From IMG/VR virus record IMGVR_UViG_2778261670_000003: a stretch of DNA of 37,551 nucleotides; one strand, 5' to 3'. How positions within the stretch are numbered: position 1 is the first letter of the stretch; every line of letters starts with the position of its first letter. The notes under the pieces were generated by a model. It ran no database searches, had not been told where the DNA came from, and was given only the letters and a program-made list of their open reading frames with translations. Shown piece after piece: positions 5,753-12,600 of this stretch. Made by a program: the position numbers and the translations under genes. This DNA comes from a virus. Taxonomy: Duplodnaviria > Heunggongvirae > Uroviricota > Caudoviricetes.

Positions 5753-6606
5753 GCACCATCCTGAAATGGGCGGGAAATAAAACCGCCATAATGTCCGAAC
5801 TGAAAAAGCATCTTCCTGCTGGCCCGCGACTGGTTGAACCTTTCGCGGGATCCTGTGCAGTGATGATGGAGACGGATTACCCTAGCTATCTTGTTGCGGA
5901 TATTAATCCTGATTTAATCAACCTCTATAAAAAGGTTGCTGCTGATTGTGAGGCGTTTATATCTCGTGCCAGAGCTTTATTTGAGGAAGCAAACAGGGAG
6001 GTGGCTTATTACAACATAAGGCAGGAGTTTAATTACTCCACTGAAATTACTGATTTCATGAAAGCGGTATATTTTCTGTATCTCAATCGTCATGGTTACC
6101 GTGGGTTATGTCGCTATAACAAGAGCGGGTATTTCAACATTCCCTACGGTAATTATAAAAATCCGTATTTCCCTGAAAAAGAAATTCGCGCATTTGCAGA
6201 GAAAGCCCAGCGAGCAACGTTTATCTGCGCCAGCTTTGATGAAACGCTGGCGATGCTGCAGGTGGGGGATGTGGTGTATTGCGATCCGCCTTATGACGGT
6301 ACGTTTTCCGGTTATCACACTGACGGCTTCACTGAAGATGACCAGTATCACCTGGCATCTGTTCTTGAATATCGATCATCAGAAGGTCATCCAGTCATTG
6401 TTTCTAACAGTGACACATCCCTGATCCGTTCGCTGTATCGAAATTTCACTCACCACTACATCAAGGCAAAACGCAGCATCGGCGTGTCGGCTGGCGAGAG
6501 TAAATCTGCAACAGAAATCATTGCTGTTTCCGGAGCGCGCTGCTGGGTGGGATTTGATCCTTCGTGTGGCGTGGATAGTTCTGCTGTGTACGAGGTGCGC
6601 GTATGA
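5749..6606 (+). CDS. dam: DNA adenine methyltransferase (Dam family, N6-adenine)
   Basis: N-terminal LKWAGNK, FAGS motif and catalytic DPPY motif. ATG at 5749 overlaps the previous stop (ATGA). The ORF track start at 5635 is an out-of-context N-terminal extension. Confidence 0.9.
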
Positions 6607-9017
6607 GTCATGACGATATGAGCAACTCTAGCGGCTTTAACGAGGCCGCTGCAGCATTTTCATGGAACGGCCCGAAAAAGGCCATTAACCCTTATCTGGA
6701 CCCGGCGGAAGTTGCGCCGGAGTCTGCACTTTCAAACCTGATCACTCTGTACGCTGCCGATAATGAGCAGGAACAGCTGCGCCGCGATGCACTGAGTGAG
6801 CAGGTCTGGGAGCGTTATTTCTTTAATGAATCCCGTGATCCTGTCCAGCGCGAAATGGAGCAGGATAAGCTCATTAGCCGGGCAAAGCTGGCGCATGAGC
6901 AGCAGCGTTTTAATCCAGACATGGTCATTCTGGCTGACGTCAACGCCCAACCTTCCCATATCAGCAAGCCGCTGATGCAACGTATTGAATACTTCAGCAG
7001 CCTGGGCAGGCCAAAGGCTTATTCTCGCTATTTGCGTGAGACGATTAAGCCATGTCTGGAACGACTGGAGCATGTACGCGACAGTCAGCTATCCACTTCT
7101 TTTCGCTTTATGGCAAGCCATGAAGGGCTGGACGGCCTGCTGATCCTGCCTGAAATGAGTCAGGATCAGGTGAAACGCCTGTCTACCCTTGTCGCTGCGC
7201 ATATGAGCATGTGTCTTGATGCCGCTTGTGGTGATTTGTACGCCACCGATGATGTTAAGCCAGAAGAAATCCGCAAGACATGGGAAAAGGTGGCAGCGGA
7301 AACCCTACGTTTGGATGTCATCCCGCCTGCGTTTGAGCAACTCCGTCGGAAAAGAAACCGCCGTAAACCAGTGCCCTATGAACTCATTCCGGGCTCGCTG
7401 GCGCGTATGCTGTGCGCCGACTGGTGGTATCGGAAATTGTGGAAGATGCGTTGCGAATGGCGGGAAGAGCAGTTGCGTGCTGTCTGCCTGGTCAGCAAAA
7501 AAGCATCTCCCTATGTCAGCTATGAAGCTGTGATGCATAAACGTGAGCAGCGCCGTAAGTCGCTGGAGTTTTTCCGTTCTCATGAACTGGTGAACGAAGA
7601 CGGAGACGCGCTGGATATGGAAGATGTGGTAAACGCCAGCTGCAGCAACCCGGCGCATCGCCGCAATGAGATGATGGCCTGTGTTAAAGGTCTGGAGCTT
7701 ATCGCGGAAATGCGCGGTGACTGCGCCGTTTTCTACACCATTACCTGTCCGTCACGTTTCCATTCCACGCTCAATAACGGCAGACCCAACCCGACCTGGA
7801 AAAACGCGACGGTAAGACAAAGCAGCGATTATCTGGTCGGTATGTTTGCTGCATTTCGTAAGGCGATGCACAAAGCCGGGTTGCGCTGGTATGGCGTGCG
7901 GGTGGCTGAGCCGCATCACGACGGCACAGTTCACTGGCACCTGTTGTGTTTCATGCGCAAAAAAGACCGCCGCGCCATTACTGCATTGTTGCGTAAGTTT
8001 GCTATCCGTGAAGACCGCGAGGAGCTGGGCAATAACACTGGGCCGCGCTTTAAGTCTGAGTTGATTAACCCGCGCAAAGGTACGCCAACAAGCTACATCG
8101 CGAAATACATCAGTAAGAACATTGACGGGCGTGGTCTGGCTGGCGAGATCAGCAAGGAAACGGGGAAATCCCTGCGTGATAATGCTGAATACGTTAATGC
8201 CTGGGCGTCTCTGCATCGTGTTCAGCAATTCCGCTTCTTTGGCATTCCGGGGCGTCAGGCTTACCGTGAACTGCGATTGCTGGCTGGTCAGGCGGCAAGG
8301 CAACAGGGGGACAAAAAAGCAGGTGCGCCGGTACTGGATAACCCGCGCCTTGATGCAATCCTGGCTGCTGCTGATGCTGGTTGTTTTGCCACCTACATCA
8401 TGAAGCAGGGCGGCGTACTGGTTCCCCGCAAATATCACCTGATCAGAACCGCTTATGAAATCAACGAAGAGCCGACCGCCTATGGCGATCACGGCATTCG
8501 TATTTATGGCATCTGGTCACCCATTGCAGAGGGCAAGATCTGCACTCATGCAGTGAAGTGGAAAATGGTTCGTAAGGCCGTTGACGTTCAGGAGGCGGCA
8601 GCCGACCAGGGCGCTTGCGCCTCTTGGACTCGTGGCAATAACTGTCCCCTTGCTGAAAATTTAAACCAACAAGGGAAAGACAAATCAGCTGATGGGGACT
8701 CCAGAACGGATATTACCCGTATGAATGACAAGGAGTTGCACGATTACCTGCACAGTATGAGCAAAAAAGAGCGCCGGGAACTGGCTGCAAGGTTACGCCA
8801 GGTGAAACCGAAACGGCGTAAAGACTACAAACAGCGAATTACAGACCATCAGCGACAGCAGCTCGTCTATGAACTGAAGTCTAGGGGATTTGATGGCAGC
8901 GAGAAAGAAGTCGATTTGCTCCTTCGCGGCGGCAGTATTCCGTCAGGAGCAGGCCTGCGTATCTTCTATCGGAACCAGCGTCTGAAGGAAGATGATAAGT
9001 GGCGGAACCTGTATTAA
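6603..9017 (+). CDS. Replication initiation endonuclease (P2 gpA-like rolling-circle initiator)
   Basis: 804-aa product with HUH-type VHWHLL motif. Position downstream of early genes as in P2/186. Confidence 0.9.
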
Positions 9018-9109
9018 TTACGCGGGTTAACAATTCGTGCTCTTAATAATACCAGGCATATCAGGCCGATGAACGTAAAAAAACGTTTTACATCAGTAAG
9101 ATTATTATA

Positions 9110-9129
9110 TACTGTAAATATAAACAGTG
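9110..9129. promoter_or_regulatory. LexA (SOS) box TACTGTAAATATAAACAGTG
   Basis: CTGT-N8-ACAG with an AT-rich spacer, about 40 nt upstream of the 9170 ORF. A second degenerate half-site follows at about 9127-9146. Confidence 0.6.
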
Positions 9130-9169
9130 GTTATGTATACAGTATTGTTTTGGTGTCATAGGAGGAAAG

Positions 9170-9358
9170 ATGCAGGACTATTTTTTGGAGTCTTTGAAGC
9201 TCCAGCGCATTGATTTTTTTCTTAAGCTTGTAGCGGCTAGTGAGTGTAGTGATGAAGAGAAGGGGCTGGCTCTGCAGTGGGTTTCTGAATTGACTGATGA
9301 ACTCATGGCAAAAATCAGAAGCCACGAATACAACCGCTCAATGGATGTCATCAGCTGA
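9170..9358 (+). CDS. Small hypothetical protein, first ORF of SOS-controlled module (Tum-like N-terminal part?)
   Basis: Strong GGAGG SD at 9161-9165, ATG at 9170; 62 aa. Confidence 0.5.
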   Translation: MQDYFLESLKLQRIDFFLKLVAASECSDEEKGLALQWVSELTDELMAKIRSHEYNRSMDVIS

Positions 9359-9368
9359 GGTGACTTTT

Positions 9369-9602
9369 ATGCGCATTGAAATAATGATCGATAAAGAGCA
9401 GAAGATTAGCCAGTCTACCCTGGACGCCCTTGAATCCGAGCTTTACCGCAATCTGCGCCCCCTGTATCCCAAAACGGTAATTCGCATTCGCAAAGGTAGC
9501 TCTAACGGTGTGGAACTAACCGGACTGCAACTGGATGAAGAAAGAAAACAAGTGATGAAAATTATGCAGAAGGTGTGGGAGGACGACAGCTGGCTGCATT
9601 AA
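9369..9602 (+). CDS. dinI: DinI-family protein (186 Tum-like C-terminal antirepressor domain)
   Basis: 77-aa product MRIEIMIDKEQ…, similar in length and pattern to E. coli DinI (MRIEVTIAK…). GAGGTG SD upstream. LexA box upstream. Confidence 0.8.
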   Translation: MRIEIMIDKEQKISQSTLDALESELYRNLRPLYPKTVIRIRKGSSNGVELTGLQLDEERKQVMKIMQKVWEDDSWLH

Positions 9603-9610
9603 GAAACGTT

Positions 9611-9640
9611 GCCCCCAGGAGGATTCATTCTGATGGGGGC
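9611..9640 (+). terminator. GC-rich hairpin (GCCCCCA-16nt-TGGGGGC) after dinI-like gene
   Basis: Seen directly; weak T-tract (tagttt) follows. Confidence 0.3.
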
Positions 9641-9800
9641 TAGTTTGGGCAATGAGTGAAATAAGGCGTAAGGTGGGCGGTTATTTTGATAAGTGATCGT
9701 CCGCTTTGTGTCAGAAGCAGAAGCAGAAGTGGGAGTGTCTGAGACTCTCTAAAAGTTGATGATTCACTTACAAAACCATTTTCCTGATGGATGCTTACAC

Positions 9801-10136
9801 TTACGAATGATTATTCTGTTTAGTCTTCATGAGAAAATCCCGAATCTTTGCCAAGTTTGAGTTTTCGGGGATTGAATCCATGTACGGATCACGCTCAAAC
9901 ACTAATTGCTCAGATTCAACGAAAGCCTGCCACTCTACTGGGTCTAGCTCAAATCCCATTGCTGTCATATCACTTTCATCTTCCCCCTCGATCCAGTGGA
10001 CTAAATAAAACAATTCATCATCAGGAGAATCATCCTCACCATCGACAATATCAACATCGGTTACAGTGATACGTAGGGTGGGATCGATTTTTGAGACATA
10101 AATTCCTAACTGTGGTATAGGGGGAATATTGTTCAT
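9801..10136 (-). CDS. Small highly acidic protein (111 aa), unknown function
   Basis: AGGAG SD 5 nt upstream of ATG at 10136. Very D/E-rich (DGEDDSPDDE, EGEDESD). Divergent from the retron. Confidence 0.7.
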   Translation of the reverse strand: MNNIPPIPQLGIYVSKIDPTLRITVTDVDIVDGEDDSPDDELFYLVHWIEGEDESDMTAMGFELDPVEWQAFVESEQLVFERDPYMDSIPENSNLAKIRDFLMKTKQNNHS

Positions 10137-10588
10137 GGAAACTCCTTTTATTGGTGCTTGCTATTTGAATAAAAATACGCCAAACAGAGTGTTAACTGTG
10201 AATATGGAAAGAATCGTTGTAAGTACCCCGCTTAGGTGTCCCATTCTATTTTAGAGGTTCTCGTGCATATGGATTATGTTATCTGAAAGTTAACTTCCGC
10301 TTCCCGTTCACAGCGAACATTCATCTTTGTAAACCCGTATGATCCGTTTTTCAAGTGGCCATTCAGATACGGATTTTCACTTCCTTGACAGTGCATGACT
10401 ATGCTGCATGAAATCGCATGATCGATTGAGGATCGTCTTTGCTCAGATCCGCCAGAACTGGCGGGCTTTTGCTCATGTCATGCATGTGCATGAAAACCAC
10501 TGCATAAAGCGGGCAGGCGTGGCGGGGATACGAGCGCGCGCTGAGCTGCATTCACTTGAATAATCCGTATGTTAGTGCTAGCCTAGCT

Positions 10589-10743
10589 GTGCCCTTAGCA
10601 GGAAAGTACATTCAATATGTTACTTTCTAGTGGTTGGTGTTTAGCCAACTCGTATGGATTGCTTGGTATCTCGACACAAGTTAGCCTTGTGTCATTTATA
10701 GACACCAGGCTAACTTGTGTCTCGGGAACTCTTGTATGGGCAT
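10589..10743 (+). ncRNA. Candidate retron msr-msd non-coding RNA (boundaries approximate)
   Basis: Ec86-like GTGCCCTTA-G motif at 10589-10598 (candidate a1 plus branching G). Imperfect complement TATGGGCAT at 10735-10743 (candidate a2). Two msr-like stem-loops at 10602-10627 and 10632-10647. A perfect 14-bp inverted repeat with nested hairpin at 10673-10721 is msd-like. Lies directly upstream of the effector and RT on the same strand. Confidence 0.4.
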
Positions 10744-11669
10744 TAATTGTTATGTGGTTTAAACATCCTAGATATTTACGAGCAAAAGAAAATTTTATTT
10801 CAAGTTTTTTTCCAAGTAACTTGAATTCTTTTAATTATATCCTGCCAAAAGTATTATTTATTTGTGGAGGAGATGAGACTTATTGTTCAAATAGAGGGAT
10901 GCTGGAAAAATATATTGCTAAGCATCATAAAGAATTTGTTACTTTTCGAGCAGAATTAGCATGGGACGTAATTAGCAATTTAGGAACTCATAGTAATGTG
11001 AATGCGTTATCACTTGAAGAATGGCTTGCGGATTTTTCTGATGTGGTAATTATTCTCGTAGAGAGTTATGGCACTGTAGCTGAATTGGGCGCATTTTCAT
11101 TAAGTCCTGTTTTACGTAAAAAACTTCTTCCTATATTAGATAAAAAGTTTGAAAGTCATAAGTCATTTATCAATACAGGGCCCGTAAAATGGGTTGATAG
11201 TGAATCCAAATTTGGCCCTACAATCTATACTGAATTTGAGACAATTTTAACGTGTATGCCTAAAATAAATGAAAGGCTAAATAGGAAAGTTCAATCAAAC
11301 ATAACTAATACAAATTCAATAGGTGATTACAAATATTCACCAAAAATTTTTTTATTTTTTGTGCTCGTTGTTATATCTTCTTTAGGTCCAATAACAATTC
11401 CTGAGATTATTAATATCACAGGTAGGTTGATAAATTATAAAATTAATAAAAATATTTCATTTGTTGTTTCTATTGGAGTTGCTCTTGGGATTTTTAAGGA
11501 AAGTCGATTTGAGGGCGTGACCCATTATTCATGTGTCGATTATATTAAATTTTTTAATCATGAAAAGATGAAAGATTTAGTTGAAAGTATTCAACGAAGT
11601 AGAGCTAGATCATTATCCGATTTAATAATGATATCTAAATTCAAAGCAGAATTAGAAAGGATCATGTGA
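10617..11669 (+). CDS. Retron effector, nucleoside 2-deoxyribosyltransferase-like (NDT-like) with C-terminal hydrophobic segments
   Basis: ESYGTVAELGA resembles the NDT catalytic-glutamate motif, after a beta-strand-like KVLFICGG. Two C-terminal hydrophobic stretches. AT-rich. The 10617 ATG has an AGGAAA SD but lies inside a predicted RNA hairpin; the true start may be ATG 10752, just after the candidate a2. Confidence 0.7.
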   Translation: MLLSSGWCLANSYGLLGISTQVSLVSFIDTRLTCVSGTLVWALIVMWFKHPRYLRAKENFISSFFPSNLNSFNYILPKVLFICGGDETYCSNRGMLEKYIAKHHKEFVTFRAELAWDVISNLGTHSNVNALSLEEWLADFSDVVIILVESYGTVAELGAFSLSPVLRKKLLPILDKKFESHKSFINTGPVKWVDSESKFGPTIYTEFETILTCMPKINERLNRKVQSNITNTNSIGDYKYSPKIFLFFVLVVISSLGPITIPEIINITGRLINYKINKNISFVVSIGVALGIFKESRFEGVTHYSCVDYIKFFNHEKMKDLVESIQRSRARSLSDLIMISKFKAELERIM

Positions 11670-11670
11670 T

Positions 11671-12600
11671 ATGTTAATTGAGTATCTAGCTAAAGTTTTA
11701 CTGTTAGAAGCTGATTTTATATTAAAAGTTGCAAATGATGCTAACTCGCATTATGGTAAATTTTCTGTACCTAAAAAAGGCGGTGGGACAAGAATCGTCT
11801 ATCAGCCCTCTAAAGAATTAAAAGTTTTGCAGAGATTACTTCATGATAATGTTCTGTCGAAATTGCCGATTCATCCAAATGCTGTAGCATATCAGCAGGG
11901 TTCATCAGTGTTCAAACATGCAAGCATTCACAAAGCTAAACGTTTTATGCTTAAGATGGACTTTGAAGGTTTTTTTGATTCAATTAAGGAAAGTGATGTT
12001 GAGAGATTTATAAACGACAACAAGCATTTCTTCAGTGATGATTGGTCAAAGGATGATACTGATTTGCTGGTAAAAATAGTATGCTTTAACGGGAGACTGA
12101 CTATGGGTGCTGTTAGTTCCCCTGTGGTAAGCAATGCTATATGCTATGAATTAGATCATATATTGAATGAATTTTGTCTTTCAAAAGGTGTAACATATAC
12201 ACGCTATGCTGATGATATGTACTTCTCAACAAACGAAGAAAATGTATTGAAGCAAATACCACCTTTTTTACGCTCGAATTTAAAAACTTTAAAATACCCA
12301 TCAAAACTATGGATTAATAGAAAAAAGACACTGCATATGTCAAAGAAAAATAAAATGATGGTTACGGGTGTGACTTTGACAACAGATGGTGGAGTATCCT
12401 TAGGGAGAGATAAAAAAAGGATGGTTAAATCGCTTATTTTTAAATGGGAGGCTCTTGATGAGAAGAAAAGGCTATTTCTTCAAGGATATTTATCGTATTG
12501 CAAAAGTGTTGAGCCATTATTTATTAATAGGCTTTGTGCGAAATATTCATCAGAGCTGATTGATGAAATCCAGAGATATCAACCTGAAGTATCAGAATAA
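11671..12600 (+). CDS. Retron-type reverse transcriptase
   Basis: Motifs VYQPSKELKVLQ, LKMDFEGFFDSI, YTRYADDMYFS (YADD catalytic) and MVTGVTLT (retron VTG motif) align with Ec86 RT as I recall it. 309 aa, the typical retron RT size. Confidence 0.9.
   Translation: MLIEYLAKVLLLEADFILKVANDANSHYGKFSVPKKGGGTRIVYQPSKELKVLQRLLHDNVLSKLPIHPNAVAYQQGSSVFKHASIHKAKRFMLKMDFEGFFDSIKESDVERFINDNKHFFSDDWSKDDTDLLVKIVCFNGRLTMGAVSSPVVSNAICYELDHILNEFCLSKGVTYTRYADDMYFSTNEENVLKQIPPFLRSNLKTLKYPSKLWINRKKTLHMSKKNKMMVTGVTLTTDGGVSLGRDKKRMVKSLIFKWEALDEKKRLFLQGYLSYCKSVEPLFINRLCAKYSSELIDEIQRYQPEVSE

Follow-up and report, generated by a model that had tools for sequence, protein, structure and literature searches.

Background

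Ocr (T7 gp0.3) and ArdA are DNA mimics: small proteins of very low pI, without enzymatic motif, carried by mobile elements near the genome end. Ocr is a helical dimer imitating bent B-DNA, ArdA is an elongated three-domain protein. Charge by itself is a weak predictor of DNA mimicry. Another mimic, the antirepressor CarS of Myxococcus xanthus, is a small acidic protein with SH3 topology that imitates operator DNA and occupies the DNA-recognition surface (PMC2926617).

In P2-like phages, the region between gpA and gpQ is a hotspot of anti-phage genes, which directly adjoins cos (PMC9122126). The slot between gene A, or the Tum-DinI region, and cos houses tin and old in P2 and orf97 in 186 ('blocks 186 infection'). 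These genes are non-essential, variable and prophage-carried, and their large products have known or suspected exclusion activity. Anti-defence genes were found in only 28 of the 1511 P2-like prophages of a recent survey. The St85 retron has been studied in a genome-wide overexpression screen (Bobonis TIC/TAC), which took in the BL21 clones B21_00836 to B21_00839, and its effector can be blocked by RacC and other small proteins of prophage origin (bioRxiv 10.1101/2020.06.22.160242).

Here we analyse a gene for a small acidic protein in a stretch of 37,551 nucleotides of viral DNA (IMG/VR record IMGVR_UViG_2778261670_000003, Caudoviricetes), called the window in the following. An initial annotation, made from the letters alone, had regarded the product as a possible DNA mimic or anti-defence factor, and its gene as either independent of the neighbouring retron or regulating it. 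We propose that it is an autonomous prophage accessory gene, coding for a stoichiometric acidic binder or inhibitor, with the retron as a separate module; for this reading as a whole we see the chances as even.

A conserved gene for a strongly acidic protein

The ORF at 9801-10136 is a genuine conserved gene and not a chance ORF, because it has 61 homologue clusters, matches the profile phrog_17127 (E 7e-70, positions 1-111 of 111), shows low dN/dS and belongs to a family that is negatively charged throughout. Pairwise dN/dS values of 0.12-0.19, obtained for orthologues at dS 0.3-1.6, indicate purifying selection. The strong Shine-Dalgarno sequence and the dense Asp/Glu clusters described in the initial annotation of this 111-aa ORF are both there: AAGGAG is placed 5 nt before the ATG, and the acidic stretches DIVDGEDDSPDDELFY and EGEDESDM were found in the product. 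The protein contains 14 Asp and 11 Glu against 7 Lys and Arg, which gives a net charge of -18 and a pI of about 4.05, and its gene occupies a slot of a 186/P2-like prophage; the description as a small acidic protein in a phage accessory locus was thus accurate.

No catalytic motif or nucleotide-binding signature was seen in the protein. Scans with a copy of Pfam that lacks the PF26332 model and with the anti-phage defence profiles of PADLOC-DB returned 0 families each at E <= 0.1, and no NCBIfam family was matched. In keeping with the initial annotation, no homology to a housekeeping family was found. Membership in the DinI family was considered and rejected, as the DinI profile matches only the neighbouring ORF (9297/9370-9602).

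The DUF8087 family and its predicted fold

All 61+ homologues of the protein carry a precomputed PF26332 assignment, which places them in DUF8087, and RefSeq names some of them 'DUF8087 domain-containing protein'. The family is small: when 1.84 billion representative proteins were searched exhaustively with an HMM, no more than 34 clusters at 50% identity were retrieved. It is already catalogued, and we found neither a function nor a publication for it: no paper came up for DUF8087, PF26332, phrog_17127 or its WP accessions, and in the locus arrangements of Rousset et al. the gene appears only as 'hypothetical'.

Close members (50-97% identical, about 108-111 aa) all come from Enterobacterales. 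Distant members, from metagenomes, Nitrosospira and Pantoea, have 68-106 aa, and their similarity is confined to the first 80 residues or so. P8, G11 and W69 are invariant family-wide; Y13, V28, V46 and E63 are nearly so. An ELDPxEW motif is conserved as well. The length of the first acidic loop differs between members (about 0 to 12 residues), and in one environmental subgroup the N-terminus is extended by a basic stretch, MGQAKLRGSKEERIAQ. A net charge of -8 to -19 is retained in every member, even at 30-45% identity.

An AlphaFold2 model built from 36 sequences (mean pLDDT 77.7, pTM 0.62) contains strands at residues 11-15, 22-32, 42-50, 61-64 and 78-82 and helices at 66-76, 84-87 and 94-108. 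According to this model of moderate confidence, the fold is a small SH3-like beta-barrel followed by helices, and the acidic stretches form two loops, at residues 33-41 between strands 2 and 3 (low pLDDT) and at residues 51-57 between strands 3 and 4.

Foldseek comparison of the model with the PDB and with the viral models of BFVD gave nothing below E = 0.1, and the family profile found nothing at E <= 10 among all PDB sequences. These searches provide no structural or sequence support for Ocr, ArdA or a characterised anti-defence family. Structure prediction, which the initial annotation had recommended, gave a fold unlike that of Ocr or ArdA. The dense negative charge is an Ocr-like trait, as are the small size, the very low pI, the lack of an enzymatic motif, the carriage on mobile elements and the position near a genome end, but sequence similarity and structural match to either protein are missing. 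As for fold, an Ocr-like protein was rejected because the all-helical bent-B-DNA mimic is not matched by the model, and ArdA because there is neither an ArdA profile match nor an elongated three-domain fold. For the way in which the protein is proposed to act, CarS may be the most fitting precedent, as it is likewise small, acidic and, compared with our model, SH3-like; the likeness would be one of analogy, not of homology.

On these features rests the first of the alternatives, in which DUF8087 would mimic DNA in the way of Ocr or ArdA and, on entry of the element to a new cell, inhibit a host defence directed at DNA, such as restriction-modification or BREX. We hold this to be possible, if doubtful. 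The small size, the charge kept by the whole family, the acidic loops of variable length and the CarS precedent for an acidic DNA mimic of SH3 topology all argue for it; the beta-rich model, unlike Ocr and ArdA and with no significant neighbour in PDB or BFVD, and the failure to match Ocr, ArdA or any Pfam profile in the scan described above argue against it.

Two accessory slots flanking cos

The window is a 186/P2-like prophage (Table 1), with the gene order gpA, LexA box, phrog_698 ORF, DinI/Tum-like ORF, DUF8087 gene (on the opposite strand), gap, retron, portal gene Q and terminase. The LexA box and the two ORFs that follow it are the counterpart of the p95-tum SOS antirepressor operon of 186. 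The DUF8087 gene is convergent with this LexA-controlled operon. Since the interval between them showed no strong terminator, transcription that reads through during the SOS response could run antisense to the DUF8087 gene.

Table 1. Coordinates of features in the right-end region, cos and retron of the window
Feature	Position	Strand	Remarks
gpA	6603-9017		
Perfect LexA box, CTGTAAATATAAACAG	9112-9127		The only one in the window
phrog_698 ORF	9170-9358		Follows the LexA box
DinI/Tum-like ORF	9370-9602		Follows the phrog_698 ORF
Whole swap unit (cassette), right-end accessory slot	9724..10312	-	From comparison with loci L033 and L001
Conserved 3' flank of cassette	9765..9800	-	Homology to non-P2 copies stops at 9765
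DUF8087 CDS, 111 aa, acidic	9801..10136	-	ATG start; PF26332, phrog_17127; dN/dS, charge, AF2 model
Conserved upstream region, about 175 nt	10137..10312	-	Kept in Serratia, Symbiopectobacterium, Lonsdalea, Proteus and E. coli island copies
Shine-Dalgarno sequence AAGGAG	10142..10147	-	Kept in all cassette copies (alignment)
Conserved cos-flanking segment	10393..10545		Found in phages whether or not they carry DUF8087 or the retron
Phage cos, GGCGTGGCGGGGATACGAG (cohesive-end sequence)	10516..10534	+	Agrees with 186 cosL at 15/19 and with P2 cosL at 14/19 positions; cut positions inferred
Type II-A (St85-family) retron	10546..12600	+	Module of its own, left genome end, in the cos-to-Q interval
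Retron RT	11671-12600	+	NDT effector in the same retron

The 480-bp gap between the DUF8087 gene and the retron contains the phage cos site. In the window, GGCGTGGCGGGGATACGAG is followed by CGCGCGCTGA; the corresponding sequences are ggcgaggcggggaaagcac-tgcgcgctga for P2 cosL and ggcgtggcggggaaagcat for 186, and GCGCGCTGA after cos is common to all three. The cassette slot lies 380 nt from cos. Among 27 IMG/VR loci of this kind, the distance between cos and the DUF8087 gene is fixed in 23 and deviates by no more than about 50 nt in the other 4. Synteny with other P2-like prophages breaks at 10541-10545, 6-10 nt past cos.

Since cos is situated between the two modules, in packaged DNA the DUF8087 gene comes last at the right end and reads inward, and the retron is the first module at the left end. 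A position at the extreme end of virion DNA, together with an upstream region of its own, would suit a counter-defence protein. The gpA-gpQ hotspot of this prophage thus consists of two slots that flank cos, a right-end slot with the DUF8087 gene and a cos-to-Q slot with the retron. The two-slot arrangement corrects the local map and is consistent with the published cos-adjacent hotspot (PMC9122126). Because cos splits the hotspot in this manner, the adjacency of the DUF8087 gene and the retron carries no functional weight. The initial annotation had placed the gene directly upstream of the retron and divergent from it; this is right on the prophage map, but the cos site in between had been missed.

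The right-end slot has variable contents. In E. coli PRO_A-1496 (locus L033), whose retron is identical, two other small genes are present at 1263-1995, and one of them has a weak match to Lar (restriction alleviation), with an E of 1.2e-3 that is below the cut-off. Phage 186 has orf97 in this slot (L032) and P2 has tin/old.

Independence from the retron

For the analysis of linkage, 5,426 complete E. coli genomes were searched with window positions 9000-10650, and 1,317 of them match parts of this segment. In 131 of these 1317 genomes, identity of about 99% runs from 9000 to 10541-10545 and is then lost. Only one of the 131, strain Combat13F7, continues past cos into the retron of the window. 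Other continuations include GmrSD (E. coli W), a TIGR02391 protein and retron Ec86 (BL21(DE3) and REL606); the DUF8087 protein adjoining Ec86 in the latter two strains and GmrSD in E. coli W is WP_001059831. A similar picture was obtained with the 27 IMG/VR P2-like loci, in which DUF8087 is 95-99% identical: their cos-to-Q intervals hold about 18 different cargo arrangements (among others ShosTA, an RT-Toprim retron, AbiU, PDC-S06, an Old-like ATPase, NsnA/GmrSD-like and SIR2-like genes), and one locus has no cargo at all in an interval of 194 bp.

The retron of the window, in turn, was found in 8 E. coli genomes, with a contiguous DUF8087 gene in Combat13F7 only. Two of the other 7 genomes were inspected; their right-end slots contain two small genes (PRO_A-1496) and IS100 (E300010). 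In Klebsiella phage 4LV2017 the retron is present and the DUF8087 gene absent. There is accordingly no conserved co-occurrence of DUF8087 with the RT or ncRNA, and no common transcription unit or module, as the two are divergent with cos and the synteny break at 10541-10545 between them. Judged from these sequence comparisons, the DUF8087 gene is independent of the retron, which constitutes a separate module. Of the two options offered by the initial annotation, independence was thus upheld, some 18 cargo arrangements being found beside a nearly identical gene; regulation of the retron was contradicted by the comparative data and by the position of cos, and the suggested co-occurrence in related prophages came down to one strain of the 8 retron-bearing E. 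coli genomes.

A role as regulator, antitoxin or blocker of the NDT effector of the adjacent type II-A retron would be in line with the divergent neighbourhood in the window, with the occurrence of the gene beside Ec86 in BL21/REL606 and beside a retron in loci L048/L049, and with the RacC-type blockers of the St85 (Sen2) toxin, which are also small prophage proteins near a retron-type toxin. In contrast to those blockers, DUF8087 is distributed independently of retrons: it is found in elements without any retron, and the same gene stands beside so many other cargoes or none. Clone B21_00837, which probably carries the DUF8087 gene, is absent from the listed blockers in the Bobonis TIC/TAC tables and is flagged there as unreliable in TAC. 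A retron-linked role can therefore be given hardly any credence; it appears very unlikely and largely refuted by the distribution. The separation by cos and the missing tie to the retron make DUF8087 a reasonable candidate for an accessory protein of the inhibitor type.

With respect to the retron itself, the annotated NDT effector ORF starts at 10617, but matches to family profiles do not begin before residue 57-76, and translation probably starts further downstream, for example at M46 (position 10752). A hairpin at 10673-10721, with 21-nt arms that are 95% complementary, falls inside the annotated 5' end of this ORF and is probably the msd stem. The retron ncRNA would then probably lie between cos and the true effector start; Rfam gave no match for the hairpin or ncRNA.

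A small mobile cassette

The DUF8087 gene is part of a conserved cassette of about 0.55 kb, which comprises the upstream region of about 175 nt, the Shine-Dalgarno sequence, the 336-nt CDS and, on the 3' side, 36 nt of flank. From 9765 to an upstream edge at 10258-10314, the sequence is also preserved outside P2-like phages, with 84-88% nucleotide identity, in Serratia, Symbiopectobacterium, Lonsdalea, Proteus and 82 complete E. coli genome records. Comparison within P2-like prophages delimits the same unit. L033, which has the same retron and no DUF8087 gene, is homologous to 9000-9723 and 10292-10900 only, and L001 to 9000-9600 and 10393-10900, which sets the swap boundaries at 9723/10292 and 9600/10393, respectively. 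The edges of the cassette coincide between P2-like and non-P2 contexts.

The 175-nt upstream region is retained in every copy and, with a divergence of about 10%, compared with pS of 0.26-0.32 in the CDS, has changed less than synonymous sites. It presumably holds the promoter and 5'UTR. Within it no consensus sigma-70 promoter, LexA box or Ogr-type TGT-N12-ACA site was recognised and RNA structure was not significant (z = 0.18); Rfam gave chance-level matches only on 9550-11000. Taken together, the alignments show that the DUF8087 gene is the payload of a self-contained mobile cassette, i.e. an autonomous accessory gene.

Occurrence in other elements

DUF8087 genes were found in five kinds of genomic context. 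The first is the right-end slot of 186-like prophages of E. coli. In the second, which is seen in P2-like prophages of Klebsiella, Enterobacter and Buttiauxella, the gene belongs to the lysogeny operon, of the order cI, Flk_N-like gene, DUF8087 gene and int, with gaps of 10-25 nt; in Klebsiella and Enterobacter it overlaps the start of int by 4-14 nt. The third consists of small integrative elements with an integrase, an HTH_17 protein and a GPA-type replication protein, in which DUF8087 precedes variable genes (SRA-HNH, SMEK_N, a membrane protein) and is found beside RM, TIR-NLR and helicase genes. In the fourth, the gene is located on islands beside PD-T7-1, helicase-PLD (Mokosh-like), Sacsin-helicase, DUF4365-TPR and Mrr-like/Imm42 genes, and also in an inovirus region. 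The last is an orphan copy at the pgsA-uvrC attachment site of Pantoea. Some of the islands have no GPA, cI or int within 7 kb. No cos-like sequence was found near the DUF8087 gene in the contexts outside E. coli, so the adjacency to cos is specific to a lineage rather than functional.

By tblastn, the gene is absent from all 50,697 genomes of isolated phages, virulent and temperate, and on plasmids it was found in one phage-like replicon only, conjugative plasmids having none. In this, DUF8087 differs from Ocr and ArdA, and the finding weighs against counter-defence on entry, as does the place in the cI-int operon of Klebsiella and Enterobacter prophages, which is more typical of genes expressed from a prophage. 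Points on the other side are the carriage by mobile elements irrespective of neighbouring genes, a Morganella island in which DUF8087 is accompanied by a PF03230 'Antirestrict' gene, and the weak Lar-like match of the alternative slot occupant in L033.

A second possibility is lysogenic conversion or exclusion, in which DUF8087, produced by the prophage, would bind a protein of the superinfecting phage or a host factor needed by it and so prevent infection, alone or with a membrane partner. Like P2 tin/old and 186 orf97, the gene occupies the right-end slot, within a region known for anti-phage genes (PMC9122126); all its known occurrences are in integrated elements; elsewhere among P2-like prophages it stands in the cI-int operon beside a tail-anchored Flk_N-like protein; and its island neighbours include PD-T7-1, helicase-PLD, DUF4365-TPR and Sacsin-helicase. 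On the other hand, DUF8087 has no PADLOC match and no effector domain, unlike the much larger and unrelated products of tin, old and orf97 (the last being transcribed in the opposite direction), and it is not listed as a system in the searched part of the tables of Rousset et al. The window moreover has no membrane partner, and such neighbours occur without DUF8087. We consider exclusion to be about equally likely as counter-defence, that is, likewise a doubtful candidate.

The membrane-associated neighbours deserve a description of their own. Flk_N-like proteins of 211-247 aa are encoded between cI and DUF8087 (loci L017-L026, L078-L079, L009 and L071-L074), and the Klebsiella protein has a clear C-terminal transmembrane anchor; possibly it is an exclusion factor acting at the membrane. 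In phage 520873 the Flk_N-like gene is decayed and DUF8087 is absent. Some 200 nt downstream of DUF8087, four island loci (L007, L008, L035 and L069) encode a conserved protein of 127 aa that is hydrophobic near its N-terminus and matches no Pfam family; about 50 E. coli plasmids of 77-102 kb also have its gene but lack DUF8087. With multi-TM proteins of 282 and 312 aa in addition, membrane or hydrophobic neighbours are found in several contexts, and DUF8087 could normally work with a partner that is absent here. An obligatory partnership with the Flk_N-like or the 127-aa protein was rejected, both occurring without DUF8087. With regard to an antitoxin function, the window contains no toxin partner; in the other contexts the genes next to DUF8087 are of several kinds (Flk_N-like, 127-aa, SRA-HNH, SMEK_N) and are also seen in its absence.

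The synteny with int, cI and HTH_17-GPA genes, repeated in distant elements, also brings up a regulator of the life cycle of P2-family and GPA-type elements, either an acidic antirepressor-like protein or a modulator of Int or Rep, with a logic as in P4 epsilon, 186 Tum and CarS. The overlap with the int start codon in Klebsiella and Enterobacter prophages, the convergence with the Tum/DinI-like operon in the window and the CarS-like SH3 topology would all agree with such a function. Nevertheless, only about 10% of the E. coli prophages sharing the flanks carry DUF8087 (131/1317 genomes), some islands have the gene and none of GPA, cI and int nearby, and the same protein is encoded at two unrelated positions in P2-like genomes. 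We regard this function as improbable.

The small integrase/HTH_17 (AlpA-like)/GPA elements (L027 and L037-L039), from Nitrosospira and metagenomes, encode GPA-type proteins of 576-646 aa and carry SRA-HNH, SMEK_N, BglII RM and TIR-NLR-like genes and large helicases as cargo. They may represent an undescribed kind of P2-related satellite or island.

Proposed function

Our preferred reading remains that of an autonomous accessory gene for an acidic binder or inhibitor. DUF8087 would act stoichiometrically, by binding and blocking a basic, probably nucleic-acid-binding surface of another protein, and its mode of action would be that of a nucleic-acid mimic or decoy. It would be made in the integrated, lysogenic state, because homologues are located in the cI-int operon and in variable regions of integrated elements, and because the gene has the slot of tin/old and orf97. 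As no promoter was identified, we infer expression from this particular prophage from position only; it is probable. The target might be an immune protein of the host or of a rival element (counter-defence) or a protein of a superinfecting phage (exclusion), between which our expectation is split about evenly. The anti-defence or DNA-mimic reading put forward by the initial annotation is possible, its basis being charge and size only.

A more far-reaching version, which we find unlikely as it stands, is that DUF8087 represents a new structural class of nucleic-acid-mimic inhibitor, spread on a mobile 0.55-kb promoter-plus-gene cassette among P2-family phages, small GPA-type integrative elements, ICE-like islands and defence islands, where it would neutralise a widespread DNA- or RNA-binding immune effector or serve the prophage as a decoy against rival phages. 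Should DUF8087 prove to be an inhibitor, the short list of acidic proteins that serve as mimics or decoys when mobile elements and hosts are in conflict would gain a new fold, and the very small number of known counter-defence or exclusion factors from the P2 family a new entry.

These possibilities are readily testable, because WP_001059831 is present in BL21(DE3), REL606 and E. coli W. In BL21(DE3), the P2-like prophage with retron Ec86 (874344-882888, L036) is defective, its CII and replication-endonuclease genes being truncated, and the DUF8087 gene within it is intact.
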